Assembly: GCA_937896905.1 (NCBI GenBank)
Contig: CALBOE010000002.1
Span: 56,954 to 120,953, forward strand
Reading direction: 5' to 3'
DNA: 64,000 bases
DNA from: an uncultured Clostridia bacterium
GTDB taxonomy: Bacteria; Bacillota; Clostridia; Christensenellales; UBA1242
Shown: positions 13,594 to 35,910 of the stretch, one piece after another
How positions within the stretch are numbered: position 1 is the stretch's first letter
How the letters are laid out: each line of letters begins with the position of its first letter
Made by a program: the position numbers and the translations under genes
Notes under the pieces: model-generated
Databases searched by the model: none
What the model was told of the DNA's origin: nothing
Seen by the model: only the letters and a program-made list of their open reading frames with translations

Positions 13594-14940
13594 ATGGCAT
13601 TTTTTAGCAACCTAAGCGAACGACTAAACCACATTTTTAGCAAAATGACAAAGCGCGGGAAGTTAACCGCTTTAGAAATTAAAGAAGCAATGAGGGAAAT
13701 TCGAATTGCGCTTTTAGAGGCAGACGTTAACTATTCTGTTGCAAAAAACTTCATTAATAAAGTTAGCGAACTTGCAGTTGGTGAAGAAATTTTAAAAAGT
13801 TTAACCCCAACACAACAAGTTATTAAAATTGTTAGGGACGAATTAACTGCTTTAATGGGTGGGGAAAATCAAAAACTAATTGTTAGCCCAAAACCACCAA
13901 CAGTAATTATGATGTGTGGCTTGCAAGGTAGTGGTAAAACAACCATGTGCGGGAAGTTGGCACTTAAACTGAAAAAGGAAGGTAAGAAACCACTTTTAGT
14001 TGCGTGCGACATCTACCGCCCAGCGGCAATAGACCAACTTAAAGTGCTTGGAAAATCAATTAATATAGATGTGTTTGAACGAGGCTCGCAGGCACCAACC
14101 AAAACTGTTAAAGAAGCGGTTGCTTATGCCGAAAAGTTTGCGCTAGATACAGTTATTATAGACACCGCTGGACGACTTCAAATAGACGAAAAACTAATGG
14201 AAGAACTTAAAGATGTTAAAAAGGTTATTAATCCAACCGAAATTCTGTTAGTTATAGATGCCATGATTGGGCAGGAAGCCGTGGCAGTTTCCACCGCCTT
14301 TAACGACGCCCTTGACGTTACAGGTGTTGTGTTAACCAAAACAGATGGTGACACTCGTGGCGGTGCGGCACTTTCAATTCGTTCTGTTATTGGCAAGCCA
14401 ATTAAATTTGTTGGCGTTGGCGAAAAGTTAACCGACCTTGAACCATTCTATCCGGACCGTATGGCGTCTAGAATTTTAGGCATGGGAGACGTTTTAACTC
14501 TTATAGACAAAGCGCAAGAAGCGGTAGACGAAAAAATGGCAAAAGAAATGGAACGAAAATTCCGTGAAAACAGTTTCGACCTTAACGACTATATTGAACA
14601 ACTTAATTCTCTCAAAAAAATGGGCGGGCTTAAATCTGTTTTAGGAATGTTGCCAGGCATCGGTGGCAAACTTAAACAAATAGAGGATCAAATAGACGAA
14701 AAACAGTTAGAAAAAAATAAAGCCATAATTCAAAGTATGACGGCAAAAGAAAGGGCAAACCCCGATATTATTAACGGAAGTCGCAGGGCAAGAATTGCAA
14801 AAGGCAGTGGCACGCAAGTTAGCGATGTTAACCAACTTCTAAAACAATTTAATCAATCCAAAGAAATGATGCGTATGATGAAAAACCCAAAAGCACATGG
14901 CGGAAAGATGGCAATGATACGCAAACTTATGGGTGGCTAA
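13594..14940 (+). CDS. ffh: Signal recognition particle protein Ffh
   Basis: GLQGSGKTT, DTAGRL, TKTDGDTRGGAALS and a Met-rich M domain. Confidence 0.95.
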   Translation: MAFFSNLSERLNHIFSKMTKRGKLTALEIKEAMREIRIALLEADVNYSVAKNFINKVSELAVGEEILKSLTPTQQVIKIVRDELTALMGGENQKLIVSPKPPTVIMMCGLQGSGKTTMCGKLALKLKKEGKKPLLVACDIYRPAAIDQLKVLGKSINIDVFERGSQAPTKTVKEAVAYAEKFALDTVIIDTAGRLQIDEKLMEELKDVKKVINPTEILLVIDAMIGQEAVAVSTAFNDALDVTGVVLTKTDGDTRGGAALSIRSVIGKPIKFVGVGEKLTDLEPFYPDRMASRILGMGDVLTLIDKAQEAVDEKMAKEMERKFRENSFDLNDYIEQLNSLKKMGGLKSVLGMLPGIGGKLKQIEDQIDEKQLEKNKAIIQSMTAKERANPDIINGSRRARIAKGSGTQVSDVNQLLKQFNQSKEMMRMMKNPKAHGGKMAMIRKLMGG

Positions 14941-14997
14941 CGCCAATGGGCGTTTGGCAAAAGCTTCATCATACAAATAGCGGACACGCTATGAGCC

Positions 14998-15061
14998 GAT
15001 GAAAAACCCAAAAGCACAAGGCGGCAAGATGGCAATGATACGCAAACTTATGGGTGGCTAG
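14998..15061 (+). repeat. Ghost direct copy of the last 20 codons plus stop of ffh
   Basis: 61/64 identical to 14877-14940, offset 121 nt. All 3 differences are at third codon positions. Confidence 0.9.
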
Positions 15062-15083
15062 TAGTTTTAAATTAAAAAAATTA

Positions 15084-15107
15084 ATGGGAATTTAATCCCA
15101 TTTTTTT
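15084..15107 (+). terminator. Intrinsic terminator after the ffh ghost copy
   Basis: ATGGGA-atttaa-TCCCAT followed by T7, preceded by an A-run. Confidence 0.8.
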
Positions 15108-15171: not shown

Positions 15172-15540
15172 ATGGAATTTGAAACGAGATACATAGTTTG
15201 GTTTTATGTAGATAATGGCAATTTGCTTTTGCCCGTGGTAATAATCCCTGTATCAACAAAAAGAACAGTTGTTGTAAATTTAAATAACTCTAAAAGGTTT
15301 GTGATTGATGCAAATAAAATGGAAATTATACAAGAGTTAAAAGAAAGAATAAAAAGACAATGCAATGTTGAAACAATAAACTGTGATTACACCATCACAA
15401 TGTTAAGACGATTTGGAAATTTGCTACCTGAAGAAAAGGATTTATTGTTTAAAAGCAGTTTTAGTGCACAAGAAATAAAAATGTTAAAAACCCGTTTTGG
15501 ACAAAATATAAAAAACAACGAGCAGACAAATAACTTTTAA
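15172..15540 (+). CDS. Hypothetical protein (122 aa)
   Basis: AGGAGA RBS at 15161-15166 and its own promoter. No recognisable family. Weakly similar to the next ORF. Confidence 0.6.
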   Translation: MEFETRYIVWFYVDNGNLLLPVVIIPVSTKRTVVVNLNNSKRFVIDANKMEIIQELKERIKRQCNVETINCDYTITMLRRFGNLLPEEKDLLFKSSFSAQEIKMLKTRFGQNIKNNEQTNNF

Positions 15541-15549
15541 GGAGGGATT

Positions 15550-16029
15550 ATGTTAAAAAAATTACTGGTTAAAAAAATTTCAAAAGCTGATTTTGGCGAA
15601 AATAACCAAGTGGACTTATCTAAATTATTTTGGGTTTATGCAAAAGATGGTAATTTTATTAAACCAATATTTTTTGCAGATGGCTTATCTTTAATAATAC
15701 CAACCGACAAATTTGCAGCAGAAGTTGGAACCAGCAGCGCAAAAACCCCACCAAACGCAAAGAACCTTCAAACCCTTTTAAGTATTGTTAAAGAACAATA
15801 CAATTTGCAAGAATTGCCAAGGTTGGGCACCACACAAGTTATGATAAATAACCTATCTAAGGGGTTGTCTCACGAATTGGTGCGAGAAGTTAAACAAAAA
15901 TTGCAACAAGTTGAATTGGGGAAATGTAGCACAATAACAACAGAAGAGTTGCAACAAATTAGTAAAATCTTTTCAAAAAATCTAAAAAATGTAAGCACAT
16001 TGAACAAGGTTGAAGCATTTTCCGTTTAG
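15550..16029 (+). CDS. Hypothetical protein (159 aa), possible paralog of the preceding ORF
   Basis: AAGGAGGG RBS. Shared blocks with the upstream ORF: LFWVYAKDGNFIKP vs YIVWFYVDNGNLLLP, and ELQQISKIFSKNLKN vs EIKMLKTRFGQNIKN. Confidence 0.6.
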   Translation: MLKKLLVKKISKADFGENNQVDLSKLFWVYAKDGNFIKPIFFADGLSLIIPTDKFAAEVGTSSAKTPPNAKNLQTLLSIVKEQYNLQELPRLGTTQVMINNLSKGLSHELVREVKQKLQQVELGKCSTITTEELQQISKIFSKNLKNVSTLNKVEAFSV

Positions 16030-18818: not shown

Positions 18819-18822
18819 GCTT

Positions 18823-19004
18823 GAAGAATTACCATTCGCTTAACGCTTCGCTAATCCGCTCAGGTAAACACTTCTCGCCTTTAGGATGGAGGTTCTATTA
18901 TCAATGGTGAGCTCAAAGAATTACCATTCGCTTAACGCTAACATTAATCCGCCTGAACCAATCAACCCTGCCTTTAAATGTCATTCTGAATGAGCGAAGC
19001 GAGT
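18823..19004 (+). repeat. Degenerate tandem repeat, period about 92 nt (2 units plus a partial third from 19005)
   Basis: AAGAATTACCATTCGCTTAACGCT at 18824 and 18916 (24/24; the preceding base differs, G vs A). Further shared blocks TAATCCGC and GCCTTTA. Third start GAAGAATC at 19005. Confidence 0.8.
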
Positions 19005-20168: not shown

Positions 20169-20510
20169 ATGAATATTATCGACCAAATCGAGAAAGAACA
20201 ATTACGCAACGACCTTGCTCCTTTCAATGTTGGAGATACTGTAAGAGTGTCAGTTAAGGTCAAAGAAGGCGACAAGGAACGTATCCAAGCCTACGAAGGT
20301 GTTGTAATTGCAAAAAAAGGTGCAGGCGTTAGAGAAACCTTCACCGTTCGCCGTGTTTCGTTTGGCATTGGCGTTGAAAGAACATTCCCAATGAACAGCC
20401 CAAGAATTGATAAAATTGTTGTGGTTCGTAAGGGTAAAGTTCGTAGAGCAAAAATTTATTATGTTCGCAATCTTTCTGGTAAAGCCGCTAAAATCAAAGA
20501 AGACCGTTAG
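20169..20510 (+). CDS. rplS: 50S ribosomal protein L19
   Basis: [33 protein letters not shown] matches the L19 family. Confidence 0.95.
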
Positions 20511-20520
20511 GTCTTTTTTT
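20497..20520 (+). terminator. Intrinsic terminator overlapping the rplS stop (module A)
   Basis: AAGAC-cgttag-GTCTT followed by a T-run. Confidence 0.7.
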
Positions 20521-20581
20521 AGAGGATAGAACGGAAAGTTGCGAAACTCCTGCTAAGTAATTCTAATTACAGCAGATGTTA

Positions 20582-20635
20582 AATCTTTCTGGTAAAGCCG
20601 CTAAAATCAAAGAAGACCGTTAGGTCTTTTTTTAG
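20582..20635 (+). repeat. Exact 54-nt copy of the rplS 3' end plus terminator (module B)
   Basis: 54/54 identical to 20469-20522, offset 113 nt. Confidence 0.9.
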
Positions 20636-20652
20636 GCTTTACCCATGCAAAT

Positions 20653-20702
20653 GCTAAAGCCGCTAAAATTAAAGAAGACAGATAGTGTCTTCTTTTTTAG
20701 GC
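20653..20702 (+). repeat. Diverged copy of the rplS 3' end plus terminator (module C)
   Basis: Reads [10 protein letters not shown]-stop with ATC>ATT and CGT>AGA. Its own compensated hairpin GAAGACA-gatag-TGTCTTC followed by T6. Confidence 0.85.
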
Positions 20703-20776: not shown

Positions 20777-22315
20777 GTGCGTATGTTAGCAAAAATTTTA
20801 TCTTTTGGTTTAAATGGAATTTCGGGATACCCTGTTCAAATTGAGTTGGATATTAACTCTGGTTTGCCAGCTTATGATGTGGTTGGGCTTGCCGACACTG
20901 CCATTAAGGAAAGTAAATCTCGTGTTAAGGCTGCAATTAAAAACAGTGCCTTTAACTACCCAATTAACAAAATTATAGTCAATCTTGCTCCGGCAGACAC
21001 TAAAAAAGAAGGTAGTATGTACGACCTTCCTATTGCGCTTGCCATTTTAACCGCTCAGATGGACATTCCGCACCAAGCAATTAAAGATTATGTTGTGTTG
21101 GGCGAATTAAGTTTAGATGGCGAAATTAGAAAACTTAATGGTATTATGCCAATGTTAATTTCTGCCAAACAGTTGGGTTATAAAAAATTTATAATCCCAA
21201 AACACAATGCTGCTGAAGCAGGGTTTATTGATGGCATTGAAGTTTATGCAATGGAAAGTTTAAAACAAGCAGTTAAATTTTTAAAAGGCGAAGAAACAGT
21301 TGAAAAAGTTAATTGTAAAACCTATGAATCCGCTTTCAAAAAGCATAATTACAAGCACGATTTTGCCTATGTTCGTGGGCAAGCAAGTGCAAAAAGGGCA
21401 ATGGAAATTGCAGCGGCAGGCGGGCATAACATTTTACTTATTGGCCCACCTGGGGCGGGAAAAACAATGATGGCTAAGTGTTTTCCTTCAATATTACCAA
21501 ATTTAACGTTTGAAGAAAGCTTAGAAGTTACCAAAATTCATAGTGTGGCAGGAGTTTTGGATAGTTCAACAGGCATAGTTATTGAAAGACCATTTAGAAC
21601 CCCTCACCACACAGCAACATTAATCGCTTTAACGGGTGGCGGAAACAAAGCAAAACCGGGAGAAATTAGTTTGGCGCACAATGGTGTTTTGTTTTTAGAC
21701 GAAATGCCAGAATATGCAAGAACCACCATAGAAACCTTGCGTCAACCAATGGAAGATGGATACATAACTGTTTCAAGGAATGCTTTAACGGTGCAATATC
21801 CTGCAAATTTTGTTTTAGTGGCAAGTATGAACCCGTGCCCATGCGGTTATTACGGAAGCACCACAAAAGAGTGTAAGTGCAGCCCCAACGCAATTCATAA
21901 CTACCTTTCTAAAATAAGCGGGCCATTGCTAGATAGAATTGATTTGCACATTGAAGTTGATAGCATTAGTTATGACGACCTAACAGAAACGAGGTTGGAA
22001 GAGCCAAGTTCGGAAATTAAAAAGCGAGTTGATAAAGCAAGGCAACTGCAACTTGAAAGATTTAAAGATGGCAAAATTTATTCCAACAGCAAAATGGGAG
22101 AAAGGGAATTTAAACAGCATTGCACATTAAATAAAGATTGCACAGATTTGTTAGAATATGCGTTTAAAAAATTAAACCTTTCCGCAAGGGGATATAATCG
22201 CATTTTGAAAGTTGCCAGAACTATTGCGGATCTTGATGGTAAAGAAAACATAGAAAAACAACACATATTGGAAGCTATTCAATATCGTTCGTTAGATAAA
22301 AAGTATTCGGTGTGA
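20777..22315 (+). CDS. comM: Mg-chelatase-like AAA+ protein ComM/YifB
   Basis: GTG start (an ATG at 20783 is also possible). Lon-like N-terminus, GPPGAGKTMMA Walker A, VLFLDEMPE Walker B. Confidence 0.9.
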   Translation: MRMLAKILSFGLNGISGYPVQIELDINSGLPAYDVVGLADTAIKESKSRVKAAIKNSAFNYPINKIIVNLAPADTKKEGSMYDLPIALAILTAQMDIPHQAIKDYVVLGELSLDGEIRKLNGIMPMLISAKQLGYKKFIIPKHNAAEAGFIDGIEVYAMESLKQAVKFLKGEETVEKVNCKTYESAFKKHNYKHDFAYVRGQASAKRAMEIAAAGGHNILLIGPPGAGKTMMAKCFPSILPNLTFEESLEVTKIHSVAGVLDSSTGIVIERPFRTPHHTATLIALTGGGNKAKPGEISLAHNGVLFLDEMPEYARTTIETLRQPMEDGYITVSRNALTVQYPANFVLVASMNPCPCGYYGSTTKECKCSPNAIHNYLSKISGPLLDRIDLHIEVDSISYDDLTETRLEEPSSEIKKRVDKARQLQLERFKDGKIYSNSKMGEREFKQHCTLNKDCTDLLEYAFKKLNLSARGYNRILKVARTIADLDGKENIEKQHILEAIQYRSLDKKYSV

Positions 22316-29810: not shown

Positions 29811-31007
29811 ATGGAAAGAATATATTTAGACAATGCTTCTACCACAAGTTTGAGTGCCGAAGTTTTAAATGCCATGATGCCTGTTTTAACCGACAATTTT
29901 GGAAACTCTTCTTCAATTCATTCTTTTGGCAGAGATGCAGCAAATTTAATAGACCACAGCAGAGATATTATTGCAGATTCCATTAATGCAAAATCAAATG
30001 AAATTTATTTTACTGCAAGTGGAAGTGAGGCTAATTCCTGGGCAATAATTGGGCTGGCAAATGCCAATCGCCTTCATGGAAATCACATTATAACAAGCAA
30101 AATAGAACATCCATCGGTTTTGGAAGCGTGCAAGTATTTGGAAAACAATGGCTTTAAAGTTACATATTTAGATGTGGACCACAATGGCTTTGTAAATTTT
30201 GCACAGTATTTAAGTGCGCTATCTTCTAACACTGTTTTGGTTTCTATTATGTGTGCCAACAATGAAATTGGAACAATTCAAAACATTAAGGCACTTGCTC
30301 AAACTGCTCACGAAAAAGGCATAATTTTTCACACAGACGCAGTGCAACTTTATGGCAATATGGTGATTGACGTGCAGGATTTAGGAATAGACGCAATGAC
30401 AATTTCTGCACACAAAATTTATGGGCCTAAAGGCGTGGGTTGTTTGTATGTTTCTAACAAGTTAAAATTAGATCCTATTGTTTTTGGTGGCAACCAAGAA
30501 CGTGGGAAAAGGGGCGGAACAAGTAATACAGCTGGAATTGTTGGCTTTGCTAAGGCGGCAGAAATTGCAACAACTCACATGAGAGCCAACAACAATAAAA
30601 TTAGAGCATTAAGTGAATATTTCCTTACTAAACTAACCCATTTGGTAGAAAACATAACAATTAATGCGAAAGTTAAACAAAAACTTCCACACATAATTTC
30701 GGTTTCGTTCACAGGTATTGACGGCACAAGTTTATTAACAAAACTAGATTTGAATGGGGTTGCAGTGTCGGCTGGAAGTGCATGCACAAGCAACAGTTTG
30801 TCAATTTCGCACGTAATTTCTGCCATTGGTGCTAATAATGATGTGGCAAGAAGCACAGTTCGTTTTAGTTTGGGCAAAAATAATACATACGAAGAAATAG
30901 ATGCGGCAGTTGCCATAATTAAGCGATCAGTTGACGAACTTCGTGCATATTCTTCAACTTATGGCTTAAAAATTCGTAAGAGAAAGGGGGACGGCAAAGA
31001 TGTATAG
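29811..31007 (+). CDS. nifS: Cysteine desulfurase NifS/IscS family
   Basis: Start trimmed to MERIYLDNASTT. PLP lysine in SAHKIYGPKG. Active-site Cys in SAGSACTS. Confidence 0.9.
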   Translation: MERIYLDNASTTSLSAEVLNAMMPVLTDNFGNSSSIHSFGRDAANLIDHSRDIIADSINAKSNEIYFTASGSEANSWAIIGLANANRLHGNHIITSKIEHPSVLEACKYLENNGFKVTYLDVDHNGFVNFAQYLSALSSNTVLVSIMCANNEIGTIQNIKALAQTAHEKGIIFHTDAVQLYGNMVIDVQDLGIDAMTISAHKIYGPKGVGCLYVSNKLKLDPIVFGGNQERGKRGGTSNTAGIVGFAKAAEIATTHMRANNNKIRALSEYFLTKLTHLVENITINAKVKQKLPHIISVSFTGIDGTSLLTKLDLNGVAVSAGSACTSNSLSISHVISAIGANNDVARSTVRFSLGKNNTYEEIDAAVAIIKRSVDELRAYSSTYGLKIRKRKGDGKDV

Positions 31008-31602
31008 CAAGGTTGTTTTAAATTTATTTTCAAACCCTAAAAATGCTGGCAGAATTTCAAAACCAGATGGAATTGCATCTCTTAGCAATGCGGACGAAAG
31101 CGCACATGTGGAGTTTTCCCTTAGAATAGATATGGGAATTATTATGAACTGCCAATTTAGGGCACAAGCAAACCCATACATTATTGCAATTTGTTCAACA
31201 ATAACCGAAATGGTAAAAGGCAAAATGATTGCAATGTTGTTTTTAGATGAAACAAGTGTTAAAAAAGCCTTGGGAGATGAAAGCGACATTGACATAAATT
31301 TCTGTATAGACTGCATTAAGTTGGCGGTGGCAGACTACAAAGAAAAGTTGGAAAAAGCAAACACCATAATAGATCCAACCAAGCCAAGAAGAGGTAGAAA
31401 ACCAAAAAATTTGGCACAGGACTCACATGATAACTTAAACGAAGAGGCAGAGGTTGTTTTAGACGACAATGTATTAAATGCTACCGAGTTTTTAGTTGAT
31501 ATGAACGAAGATGATGAAGATGCATTTAATGAAAGCGACGAAAACACATCTGGCGAAGTGGATTTTGACGATTTTGATGATGACGATTTTGGCGTGTATT
31601 AA
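31000..31602 (+). CDS. Degenerate IscU/NifU-like protein with AT-hook-like motif and acidic tail
   Basis: IscU-like N-terminus (MYSKVV..NPKNAG, EMVKGK), but the CGD and GCG cluster-ligand sites read ESA and ANP. PRRGRKPK motif. Tail is DFDDFDDDDF. Confidence 0.7.
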   Translation: MYSKVVLNLFSNPKNAGRISKPDGIASLSNADESAHVEFSLRIDMGIIMNCQFRAQANPYIIAICSTITEMVKGKMIAMLFLDETSVKKALGDESDIDINFCIDCIKLAVADYKEKLEKANTIIDPTKPRRGRKPKNLAQDSHDNLNEEAEVVLDDNVLNATEFLVDMNEDDEDAFNESDENTSGEVDFDDFDDDDFGVY

Positions 31603-32383: not shown

Positions 32384-32722
32384 ATGAACAATACAAACAA
32401 AAAAACCACAAAAGTTAAAGCAAAAAATCCAATTAAGCAACTTTTAGACGAAAATAATAACGACAACATCATTTTGTTTGACGATGACGGCAACAAAATT
32501 GAGTTCGAGCAAGTGGCATTAATTCCGCTAGAAGAAACAAATGTTACCTATGCAATTTTAATTCCAATAACACCAATGCAAGGCGTTGAAGACGGCGAAG
32601 GAGTTTTGTTTGCCCTAGACGAAGAAAACGAGCAGTTGGAAGTAATTAACGACGAAAAAATCATAGATAAAGTTTTAACAATATATCAACAACTTATTGA
32701 AGAAGGCGAAGGAAATAATTAA
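32384..32722 (+). CDS. DUF1292 family protein (YrzB-like)
   Basis: The pattern DDDGNKIEFEQVALIP...YAILIP and the conserved position after ruvX. Confidence 0.8.
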   Translation: MNNTNKKTTKVKAKNPIKQLLDENNNDNIILFDDDGNKIEFEQVALIPLEETNVTYAILIPITPMQGVEDGEGVLFALDEENEQLEVINDEKIIDKVLTIYQQLIEEGEGNN

Positions 32723-32729
32723 AAACAAC

Positions 32730-32760
32730 TGTAAAGTAAAAAATCTTTACAATATTTTTA
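32730..32760 (+). terminator. Possible terminator after the DUF1292 gene
   Basis: TGTAAAG-taaaaaat-CTTTACA, then an interrupted T-tract. Confidence 0.45.
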
Positions 32761-32768
32761 ATATATTG

Positions 32769-32797
32769 TTGACAAAACTGTTATTGTTTGATAAACT
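32769..32797 (+). promoter_or_regulatory. SigA-type promoter of rpsB-tsf
   Basis: TTGACA, 17 bp containing TGa, TAAACT. A leader of about 100 nt follows, with CCCAT...ATGGG and TTGCTT/AAGCAA pairings. Confidence 0.6.
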
Positions 32798-32902
32798 AAT
32801 ATAGTTCATGAAAAAAGCACCCATTATGATTGCTTCACTGTTGCCCTTGGGTTAAAAAGCAAAATGATTGATGGGGAAGACACAAACAGGAGGATTAAAA
32901 TT

Positions 32903-33718
32903 ATGTCAGTTATTTCAATGAAACAATTATTAGAAGCTGGTTGCCATTTTGGTCATCAAACAAGAAAATGGAACCCAAAAATGAAGAAGTTCATCTTCAC
33001 AGATAGAAATGATATTCACATTCTTAACTTGGAAGATACTTCTAAACAAATCGACGCAGCATACGTTTTCGTTAAAGAAAAAGTGCTTGCAGGTGCAAAC
33101 GTGCTTTTCATTGGCACAAAGAAACAAGCTAGCGAAACAGTTAAACAAGAAGCTGAACGTTCTGGAATGTTCTATGTTAACTCTCGTTGGTTGGGCGGAA
33201 CATTAACCAATTTCGTTACAATCCGTAAGAGAATTGACAGAATGAACAAACTAAACAACATGGAAGCTCTTGGAGATTTCGACTTGCTACCTAAAAAAGA
33301 AGTTATTAAACTTAGAGCAGAAAGAGATAAACTTGCAAACAACCTTTTGGGTATTAAGGATATGACATCTCTTCCAGGGTTGATTATTTTAGTAGACCCA
33401 CACACAGAACACATTGCAGTTCAAGAAGCTAAACGTTTAGGAATTCCAACTGTTGGTATTGTTGACACAAACGGAGATCCTGATGATGTTGACGTATGCA
33501 TTCCAGCAAATGACGATGCTATTGGCTCTGTAAAACTTATTATTAGTGCTTTAACAGACGCTATTTTAGAAGCAAAGGGTGGAGTTGTTCTTCACGACTT
33601 AACCGCTAACGACGAAGACGTTTCTATGGAAGCTATGGTTTCTGGCGAAGTTGCAAAAGATGAAGAAAAAGCAGCTGCAAAAACTCGTAAACCAGCAAAA
33701 AAAGAAGTTAAAGAATAA
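32903..33718 (+). CDS. rpsB: 30S ribosomal protein S2
   Basis: Start trimmed to [27 protein letters not shown] with AGGAGG RBS. Confidence 0.95.
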
Positions 33719-33758
33719 TATTAATTCAATAACTTGTTAATTAAAAAGGAGAAAGTAT

Positions 33759-34418
33759 ATGAATATTACAGCAAAAGATGTTGCTAATTTAAGAGATCTT
33801 ACCGGTGCAGGTATGATGGACTGCAAAAAAGCTCTTGTTGAAGCAGACGGAAACGTAAACAAAGCAGTTGAAATTTTACGTGAAAGAGGAATTGCTAAAG
33901 CTGCTAAAAAAGAAGGCAGAATTGCAGCAGAAGGTTTTGTAGATAGTTACGTTCACGGTGGTGGAAGTTTTGCTTCTTTGGTTGAATTTAACACCGAAAC
34001 CGACTTTGCAGCAAAGAACGAAGAACTACGTGAATTTGCTCATAACGTTGCAATGCAAGTTGTTGCATCTCGTCCAATTTGTGTAAGTATTGAAGAATTG
34101 CCACAAGATGTTGTTGCAAAAGAAAGAGAAATCAATCGTGCTCAACTTCTTAACGAAGGTAAGCCAGAAGCAATGGTAGACCGCATTGTTGAAGGCAAAA
34201 TGAACAAATATTATGAAGAAGTTGTTTTGCTAGAACAAACATATATTAAAGACCCAGATGGCAAAAAGAAAGTTAAAGACGTTTTAACTGCTCTTATTGC
34301 AAAAATTGGTGAGAAAATTACAATTCGCCGTTTCCACCTTATGGTTATGGGCGAAGGTTTAACAAAACGTAATGACGATTTCGCAGCAGAAGTTGCAGCG
34401 CAATCCCAAATGAAGTAG
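33759..34418 (+). CDS. tsf: Elongation factor Ts (short form)
   Basis: [19 protein letters not shown]-like N-terminus. Confidence 0.95.
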
Positions 34419-34460
34419 AAGTTAAAAAACTTTGCAAGAAACCTCGAACTTGTTGAGAGC

Positions 34461-34500
34461 TTTCGCAGCCGAAGTTGCAGCACAATCTCAAATGAAATAA
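34461..34500 (+). repeat. Ghost copy of the last 12 codons plus stop of tsf
   Basis: 35/40 identical to 34379-34418. All 5 differences are synonymous third-position changes (including TAG>TAA). Confidence 0.9.
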
Positions 34501-34511
34501 TATTTAGAGGG

Positions 34512-34542
34512 AATAGCAAGTAAATTACTTGCTATTTTTTTT
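34512..34542 (+). terminator. Intrinsic terminator after the tsf ghost copy
   Basis: ATAGCAAGT-aaat-(T)ACTTGCTAT followed by T8. Confidence 0.85.
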
Positions 34543-34622
34543 CAATTTAGTTATTATAAATTTGGATTATGCTGTAAAAGTGTATTTTTTGCTTTTAACT
34601 AGTGTTTCCTTAAGGAGATTAA

Positions 34623-35189
34623 ATGAACGAAAAAGTAGAAATGGCTCTTATGGAGTTTGAAGAAAGTTTAGACAAGCACTTTAATAGATTAATAGACGAA
34701 TTAATGTTAATTCGTGTTGGCAGGGCAAACCCTAAAATGATTGAAAACATTAAAGTTGATTATTATGGAACAAGAACACCAATTAATCAAACATCAAACA
34801 TTATGGTTCAAGATGCAAGAATGTTGGTTGTTTCGCCTTGGGACGCATCAACCTTGCGCGCAATTAGAAATGGAATAGAAGCTGCTAATTTAGGAGTTTC
34901 TGTTAGCGACGACGGAAAAATTATACGTGTTAATTTCCCAATGTTAACCGAAGAAAGGAGAAGGGAATACACAAAAGATGCTAAAAAACTTTTGGAAGAA
35001 GCAAAAATTGCAATGCGTAATGCACGCAGAGATTGCTTAGATGTTTTTAAAGCGCTAAAGAAAAACAGTGAAATTAGTGAAGACGATTATGCTACCCTTG
35101 AAAAAGATGTACAAAAACAATTAGATTCTTATACTGCTAAGGCTGATACAAGTTGCGAAAAGAAAATTGTTGAAATTATGGAGGTTTAG
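34623..35189 (+). CDS. frr: Ribosome recycling factor
   Basis: LIRVGRANPKMIENIKVDYYG and RNARRD motifs. AAGGAG RBS. Confidence 0.95.
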   Translation: MNEKVEMALMEFEESLDKHFNRLIDELMLIRVGRANPKMIENIKVDYYGTRTPINQTSNIMVQDARMLVVSPWDASTLRAIRNGIEAANLGVSVSDDGKIIRVNFPMLTEERRREYTKDAKKLLEEAKIAMRNARRDCLDVFKALKKNSEISEDDYATLEKDVQKQLDSYTAKADTSCEKKIVEIMEV

Positions 35190-35190
35190 T

Positions 35191-35910
35191 TTGAATATTG
35201 AAAAATTAAAAACTGATCCTCGCATGCCAAAGCACATTGGTCTTATTATAGATGGAAATGGTAGATGGGCAAAAAAACGTGGGCTTGCTAGAAGCGTGGG
35301 ACACAAACATGGGTTTGATAATTTAGAAAATCACATTCAGTTTGTGCAGGAATTAGGTATTAAAAATCTTTCCATTTATTGTTTCTCTAAACAAAACTGG
35401 AATAGACCACAGGCAGAAGTGGATTATTTAATGGCATTGTTCGACAAAATGCTTGATAAATTTAAAGCAGAATACCTAAATAAGGATATTCGTGTTATTA
35501 TTTCTGGCGATATGGAAGACGAACAGTTACCACTAATTGTTAGGCAGAAAGCAAAAGAAATTATGGAACTAACAAAGCATAAAACAGGTTTTATACTTAA
35601 CCCTTGCATAAACTATGGAGGCAGAGAAGAAATTGTTAATGCGGTTAATAAAATTCTGCAAAGTGGCGAAACGAACATAGACGAAAAGAAATTTGAAAAA
35701 TATCTCTACACTGCAGATATGTTGCCGTTAGACTTTGTTATTAGAGCTTCTGGCGAACAAAGAACAAGCAACTTCCTTCCTTGGCAAAGCACATACAGCG
35801 AGTGGTGTTTTCCAAAACCACTTTGGCCAAGTTTTTCTAAAAACGACTTAATTAAGGCATTAAAGAACTTTATGAAAAGAAATAGACGATTTGGTGCAAT
35901 AAAGGAATAA
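35191..35910 (+). CDS. uppS: Undecaprenyl diphosphate synthase
   Basis: TTG start 6 nt after the GGAGG RBS. HIGLIIDGNGRWA and SGEQRTSNFLPWQ motifs. Confidence 0.9.
   Translation: MNIEKLKTDPRMPKHIGLIIDGNGRWAKKRGLARSVGHKHGFDNLENHIQFVQELGIKNLSIYCFSKQNWNRPQAEVDYLMALFDKMLDKFKAEYLNKDIRVIISGDMEDEQLPLIVRQKAKEIMELTKHKTGFILNPCINYGGREEIVNAVNKILQSGETNIDEKKFEKYLYTADMLPLDFVIRASGEQRTSNFLPWQSTYSEWCFPKPLWPSFSKNDLIKALKNFMKRNRRFGAIKE

Follow-up and report, generated by a model that had tools for sequence, protein, structure and literature searches.

A silently diverged ghost of the tsf 3' end in an uncultured Christensenellales bacterium: a probable recombination scar

Introduction

Repeated 3' ends of genes are familiar from sites of chromosomal integration. 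At integration hot spots, the attL/attR sites of prophages, ICEs and genomic islands contain repeats of partial 3' ends from tRNA or protein genes, and elements that integrate into the 3' ends of housekeeping genes bring a substitute end, which may differ at silent sites. Replication slippage produces tandem duplications with a head-to-tail geometry. One-sided homologous plus illegitimate recombination is an established route by which short segments beside conserved DNA are replaced (PMC3240628, PMC2884548): a conserved gene provides the homologous anchor, and a non-homologous flank is joined by one illegitimate junction, at which the known system has 3-10 bp of microhomology. Deletion of recipient DNA is the usual outcome of such homology-facilitated illegitimate recombination (PMC3240628), to which dimorphic small variable segments have been attributed (PMC3240628; PMC2884548).

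Here we analyze a 64,000-nt stretch of DNA (the window) from an uncultured Christensenellales bacterium, whose relatives by Ffh include Candidatus Onthoplasma. In the window, the last codons of tsf recur, displaced, behind the functional gene. This displaced copy, which we call a ghost, is one instance of recurrent ghost 3' ends and is best classed as a variant form of the recombination scars already known, not as a new functional element or molecular system; the literature describes the general mechanism, and our search of it did not find the specific ghost 3'-end pattern.

Anatomy of the tsf ghost

The window carries rpsB (32906-33718), tsf (33759-34418) and frr (34623-35189) on the + strand. 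The tsf product, elongation factor Ts, is 219 aa long, matches Pfam PF00889 (EF_TS) at 2.7e-38 and has 740 homologues; its gene ends in TAG. As a side observation, frr follows tsf directly, without pyrH between them, whereas the common order is rpsB-tsf-pyrH-frr; the related loci have the same order as the window.

Four + strand segments succeed one another at the 3' border of tsf. Copy A, the functional end (34379-34418), consists of a T, 12 codons and TAG; spacer S (34419-34460, 42 nt) is dissimilar to the post-ghost sequence, to the tsf 3' UTRs of relatives and to the rest of the window, and has no significant fold (z = 0.08); copy A', the ghost (34461-34500), holds 12 codons and TAA in frame +1 with respect to tsf; and segment X (34501-34560), the native tsf 3' UTR, contains an intrinsic terminator (stem 34506-34542) and a promoter-like site (34529-34557) ahead of frr. 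The real end reads TTC GCA GCA GAA GTT GCA GCG CAA TCC CAA ATG AAG TAG (34380-34418) and the ghost TTC GCA GCC GAA GTT GCA GCA CAA TCT CAA ATG AAA TAA (34462-34500), a recurrence at an offset of 82 nt, and therefore out of frame, that the initial annotation had described and that we locate at both places. From real end to ghost the differences are A>C, G>A, C>T, G>A and G>A, all five at codon position 3 and none changing an amino acid, so that the claim of wholly synonymous divergence, stop codon included, is borne out. Equally correct are the abrupt start of the shared sequence at TTTCGCAG (34379 / 34461), upstream of which the bases do not match at offset 82, and the spacer length of 42 nt (34419-34460), counted from the stop to the first shared base; 43 nt separate the stop from the TTC codon of the ghost. 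Exact matches between the copies run to at most 11 nt.

A scan of 32700-35300 finds a single terminator-like site on the + strand, at 34506-34542, which confirms that the only strong terminator follows the ghost. It begins 6 nt past the ghost stop, folds at -16.3 kcal/mol (z = -6.9) and has, at 34512-34542, a perfect 12-bp core and a T run. Because transcription ends only at this terminator, the ghost is carried in the tsf 3' UTR.

When five random substitutions were simulated in the real tsf end, the probability that all were synonymous was 3.4e-4, and that all fell at third positions, 2.6e-3; the ghost of contig L161, the third ghost of contig L165 (both from related lineages) and rplS ghost 2 of the window, all described below, give P values similar to the former. 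These figures bear on the plainest account, a replication-slippage duplication followed by neutral decay, in which the synonymous pattern would be a matter of chance. Short duplications across a gene 3' end are harmless, and the head-to-tail geometry of slippage products fits both rplS ghost 1, which is a perfect copy of 54 nt, and the unit of L161, which repeats in true tandem over 94 nt. The tsf copies of the window are unlike such duplications in that they have unrelated flanks and differ only at silent sites: the spacer is no copy of the post-ghost sequence (z = -0.18), and the whole-unit head-to-tail repeat seen in L161 and its companion contig L162 does not occur here. Taken with the simulated probability for the window alone, this leaves slippage and decay with almost no claim on the tsf ghost.

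Two flanks behind one gene

The 60 nt past the ghost have strongly matching counterparts (z 6.4-11) in four related loci, L163, L166, L168 and L170, where they make up the tsf 3' UTR, the terminator and the frr promoter region. The spacer shows no significant similarity to the tsf 3' UTRs of relatives, and it serves as the native tsf flank in none of the sampled lineages; a blastn-short search of the window and the fetched loci, a search of the kind proposed in the initial annotation, returned only chance 12-13-mers. Since the post-ghost flank is native and the spacer matchless, the locus contains two different 3' flanks and is not a plain tandem repeat. It can be written as [tsf...A + unrelated flank] followed by [A' + clade-native flank], with one novel joint at 34460|34461: the sequence at 34419-34460 lacks a counterpart in the post-ghost flank, the relatives and the window, and homology restarts at 34461, the pattern of a single illegitimate junction. 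The locus resembles the products of homology-facilitated illegitimate recombination in having a conserved gene in the position of the homologous anchor, a non-homologous flank joined by one illegitimate junction, and a short, apparently foreign segment in intergenic DNA beside a core gene.

Which copy is the older is a separate matter. Comparison of tsf 3' ends among relatives, proposed in the initial annotation as a way to polarise the copies, succeeds in identifying the post-ghost sequence as the clade-native flank and does not establish polarity, on which contiguity arguments cut both ways. The data that speak to it are weak: the ghost equals the real tsf tail of L163 over the last 15 nt, of which the window real end matches 12/15, and over the full 39 nt the L163 real end is matched at 36/39 positions by the ghost and at 31/39 by the window real end. 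The 24-nt conserved block is too short for phylogenetic placement of either copy. Sliding identity along rpsB-tsf against 7 relatives reveals no mosaic boundary, which would in any case be invisible at the 88% identity of the nearest of them. Profiles of GC3 and codon usage are likewise uninformative.

Within this clade, the junction on the 3' side of tsf varies between strains and between species. In a group of contigs from related species (L177-L186; 10660-16846), the tsf-frr gap carries a variable island of ~6 kb that encodes a large LRR_5 protein and two glycosyltransferases, and in L174 (2151-3082) a desulfoferrodoxin gene lies between tsf and frr on the opposite strand. L161 (to 1813) and L162 (to 1183) are identical over 1183 nt of rpsB-tsf-ghost sequence that takes in both repeat units, and then continue into wholly different DNA, a sharp strain-level breakpoint where the tsf 3' UTR ends.

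Insertions into the tsf-frr gap of relatives mark it as a hot spot, and this invites a further account, namely that the ghost is the scar of a site-specific integrative element (a prophage, ICE or IME) that entered the tsf 3' end carrying a replacement end and was later mostly deleted. The resemblance to attL/attR pairs is close, comprising direct repeats of a 3' end, an upstream copy that completes the gene, downstream copies that are displaced fossils, and the occurrence of stacks. Unlike attachment sites, the ghosts come without an element, an integrase or a kilobase-scale insert, and their spacers are only 42-59 nt long and mutually unrelated; at tsf, just 42 nt separate the copies, with neither an ORF nor an element remnant. 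The islands in L177-L180 and L174 have no tsf-end repeat at their far ends, and no phage copy of the tsf end was found among 2.9 million viral contigs, in which a degenerate tsf-end motif has 0 matches. Such a history would moreover have to invoke three separate, nearly fully deleted elements within 21 kb, and we consider it very unlikely.

Ghosts in related lineages

The closest tsf lineage, P0002 (93% aa identity), is represented by L161 and L162, which come from two samples and two assemblers. Both contain one ghost, EVAAQSKMN*, within a 94-nt tandem unit, and its differences from the real end are silent third-position changes in 3/3 cases. The next lineage, P0003 (88%; contig L165 of the NCBI MAG GCA_947584775.1), has three ghosts with a period of 79 nt, which show 1, 1 and 5 silent differences (7/7), the most diverged ghost abutting the terminator; decayed partial units lie beside the real tsf stop. 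Pooled over the window, L161/L162 and the three copies of L165, all 15 of the 15 differences in tsf ghosts are at third positions and synonymous. This uniformity and the two different flanks support the proposal of the initial annotation that an incoming allele displaced the original gene end, or the reverse, rather than that a random duplication decayed.

The tsf ghost is absent from seven further lineages at 82-87% (P0004, P0005, P0006, P0007, P0009, P0010 and P0015) and from ~160 more distant tsf loci. Scans of genomes and metagenomes added only one close relative (L001, 82% aa, no ghost), besides distant loci that served as background, and exact-protein look-ups of the Tsf and L19 of the window returned no other contig. 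In 826 kb of scanned loci only two unrelated tail repeats were encountered. The only comparable tail repeat outside the clade is at L045 2841-2923, on a contig labelled as an archaeon MAG, where EKVGTLVGG* repeats 52 nt downstream without a stop. The sampled lineages include neither a sister genome free of the duplication nor a donor lineage. In the Tsf tree, ghost-bearing lineages make up three of the four members of one subclade, a distribution from which it may be that a single old array has undergone turnover. Across the retrieved Tsf homologues the DFAAEVAA tail is nearly invariant, and the residues after it vary: SQMK in both copies of the window, and SKMN, SK or SKM in close lineages.

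These relatives also bear on the suspicion that the window is an assembly chimera, with two co-occurring strains that differ by synonymous variants of the tsf end stitched together. The window is probably a metagenome contig, the differences resemble strain variants and many related contigs break just past tsf. The longest exact match of 11 nt is, on the other hand, far below assembler k-mers, and the spacer|ghost junction has no sequence in common with tsf; with so small a shared k-mer and a unique junction, a graph path through the junction needs real reads. Furthermore, the same architecture is present in L161 and L162, independent assemblies of different samples, and in L165, and three genes on the same contig have ghosts. 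A chimera is accordingly improbable.

Ghost ends of other genes in the window

Searched as a whole for direct repeats at short range, the window yields four families, all on the + strand and all at or just past gene 3' ends. When every ORF tail was compared with its downstream 350-450 nt, at the DNA and the peptide level, only the tsf, ffh, rplS and rbgA-adjacent cases emerged, and none in controls. This recurrence, at ffh and rplS in the window and at tsf in sister lineages, had escaped the initial annotation.

The ffh (SRP54) gene occupies 13594-14940 on the + strand. Its functional 3' end, the last 21 codons and TAA (14877-14940), is followed 121 nt downstream by a ghost (14998-15061, + strand) with 3 third-position differences: CAT to CAA (His to Gln), GGA to GGC (Gly, silent) and TAA to TAG. 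The Gln was seen in 0/120 real Ffh tails. Between the copies lies a 57-nt spacer (14941-14997) that, at 51% GC, ranks in the top 2% of intergenic 50-mers and is the only ghost spacer of odd composition. The sole terminator (15083-15102) is behind the ghost. At the window ffh and tsf, and in L165, the distal ghost thus abuts the terminator, and the real end is followed by terminator-less filler. Two ORFs of 122 and 159 aa without a Pfam match lie at 15172-16029, between the ffh ghost and rpsP. As ffh and rpsP are usually neighbours, this pair may be an inserted cassette at another variable junction.

The rplS (L19) gene (20169-20510, + strand) has two ghosts. Its functional 3' end (20469-20522, + strand) includes a terminator hairpin that overlaps the stop codon. 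Ghost 1 (20582-20635, + strand), a 54-nt copy of gene end and terminator, is 100% identical and sits behind a 59-nt unrelated spacer. Ghost 2 (20644-20697, + strand) encodes KAAKIKEDR* (20656-20685) and has its own terminator hairpin; it differs by ATC to ATT and by CGT to AGA, an Arg-to-Arg switch that takes two base changes, both replacements being synonymous, and the hairpin is kept through compensatory changes. Silent changes combined with a compensated hairpin have the look of orthologous functional sequences. The gene that follows the rplS ghosts, at 20777-22315, belongs to the ComM/YifB-type Mg-chelatase family, which has been linked to natural transformation.

The fourth family is a 29-nt direct repeat (18819-18847 and 18911-18939, + strand; 27/29 identical, spaced 92 nt), whose first copy lies directly past the rbgA stop. 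Read in another frame, both copies give ...E(E/K)ELPFA*, and their flanks have TAATCCGC and GCCTTTA in common at equal spacing. They may be former RbgA tails, to judge from the RbgA proteins of B. subtilis and S. aureus, which run 5-16 residues past the aligned end. The tsf, ffh, rplS and rbgA-adjacent spacers have no common motif and no source in the window or the fetched loci, and on these grounds a common mobile element behind the ghosts was rejected.

Functional readings of the ghost

If the ghost were translated, its silent divergence could reflect selection in place: a local tandem duplication would be kept because ribosomes reinitiate past the tsf stop and make a peptide with the EF-Ts C-terminal helix. 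The synonymous nature of all differences and the near-invariance of the DFAAEVAA tail agree with this idea, and around each tsf ghost a small frame is open that has a potential start (a TTG 14 nt past the stop in the window and L161, an ATG in every unit of L165). In the window, stops at 34411-13 (TGA) and 34423-25 (TAA) close the ghost frame, which hence cannot be entered from tsf; it is open over 34426-34500, where TTG codons at 34432, 34450 and 34453 are its only starts. None of these has a Shine-Dalgarno sequence, in contrast to the strong ones of tsf and frr, and the candidate starts of the other lineages lack one as well. From one lineage to another the small ORFs begin with unrelated N-terminal sequences, ffh and rplS, with tails that bear no resemblance to one another, show the same pattern, and the tsf ghost is missing from seven related lineages and accompanied by decayed units. 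Because there is no route to translation, the small-ORF N-termini are unrelated, three unrelated proteins are affected, the distribution is patchy, units have decayed and the ffh ghost has acquired a Gln, selection in place is implausible, and we give a translated ghost very little credence.

Several other candidates were rejected. A conserved translated small ORF is at odds with TTG starts lacking a Shine-Dalgarno sequence and with the absence of the tsf ghost from seven related lineages; Pfam has no match for the ghost ORF or for minus-strand ORFs. A known structured RNA was dismissed on the lack of any Rfam match in the window and on folding, only the terminator being significant. Programmed recoding (frameshift, readthrough or bypass) is blocked by the stops in the ghost frame; in-frame readthrough of the TAG would add an unrelated peptide, and a hop would make the same protein. 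A diversity-generating retroelement is ruled out by mismatches that are not confined to adenines and by the fact that no amino acid is changed, CRISPR-like off-target integration by the anatomy and by repeat lengths that vary from 30 to 63 nt, and decay of a paralogue by the anatomy.

A probable recombination scar between alleles

We posit, with a probability of roughly 65%, that the tsf ghost is a recombination scar, formed when two alleles that had diverged as working ends in different genomes were joined. Divergence at silent sites only, the Arg switch between CGT and AGA and the hairpin restored by compensatory changes indicate that each copy was in use as a gene end during the time of divergence. 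Two tsf 3' ends would have diverged in this capacity in different, related genomes and would then have met through an exchange with homology on one side and, on the other, a single illegitimate joint at 34460|34461. On this scheme, tsf...A and spacer S would have been contiguous in one parent, and A', the terminator and frr in the other; the first copy would preserve an intact tsf, and the second would ride along as untranslated, neutral tsf 3' UTR. Equally compatible is a two-step variant, in which a short local duplication would come first and one copy would later be replaced by homologous import of a diverged allele. Young copies also arise, as shown by rplS ghost 1, which is perfect, and by the L165 units, which are nearly identical.

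The persistence of the diverged tsf copies probably reflects their longest match of 11 nt, too short for efficient recombinational deletion. Identical copies would be easily lost by recombination or slippage and diverged ones kept, and the observed set is therefore likely to be biased towards heteroallelic pairs. Ghosts are patchy and lineage-specific, with differing junctions and spacers, and this patchiness, together with the decayed L165 units and the His-to-Gln change at ffh, points to a neutral fate after formation.

Several considerations weigh against the scar. The sequence comparisons offer no mosaic boundary, and no donor, duplication-free sister or native occurrence of the spacer among the sampled lineages; the confinement of ghosts to one small subclade leaves room for a single old array with turnover; the SQMK tail of both tsf copies would demand a donor with the same tail; and classical one-sided recombination mostly deletes, its known products having lost recipient DNA of similar size, whereas tsf duplicates 39 nt and the ghosts in general 30-63 nt. 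A different and rather unlikely reading is that ghosts are the output of a frequent, lineage-specific process that repeatedly places a new copy of a core-gene 3' end and a little of its flank behind the coding sequence and ahead of the resident end, former ends becoming stacked before the terminator. One example would be recombination or repair machinery that works during DNA uptake at terminators close to stop codons; if so, the stacks would be a fossil record of successive allele replacements.

Should the recombination-scar reading hold, each ghost would be a natural and datable footprint of an allele replacement at a core gene of this uncultured gut lineage, keeping the last codons and the flank of the previous (or incoming) allele, and ghosts would show that the 3' border of a conserved gene is where recombination tracts tend to stop. 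Ghosts are also a trap for annotation, through spurious small ORFs and misjudged 3' UTRs, and for assembly, where contigs break past tsf.

Two further features of the window may be recorded. The crude gene calls are on the + strand in 61 of 62 cases, and the NifU-like protein encoded at 31000-31602 has a long, very acidic C-terminal extension.
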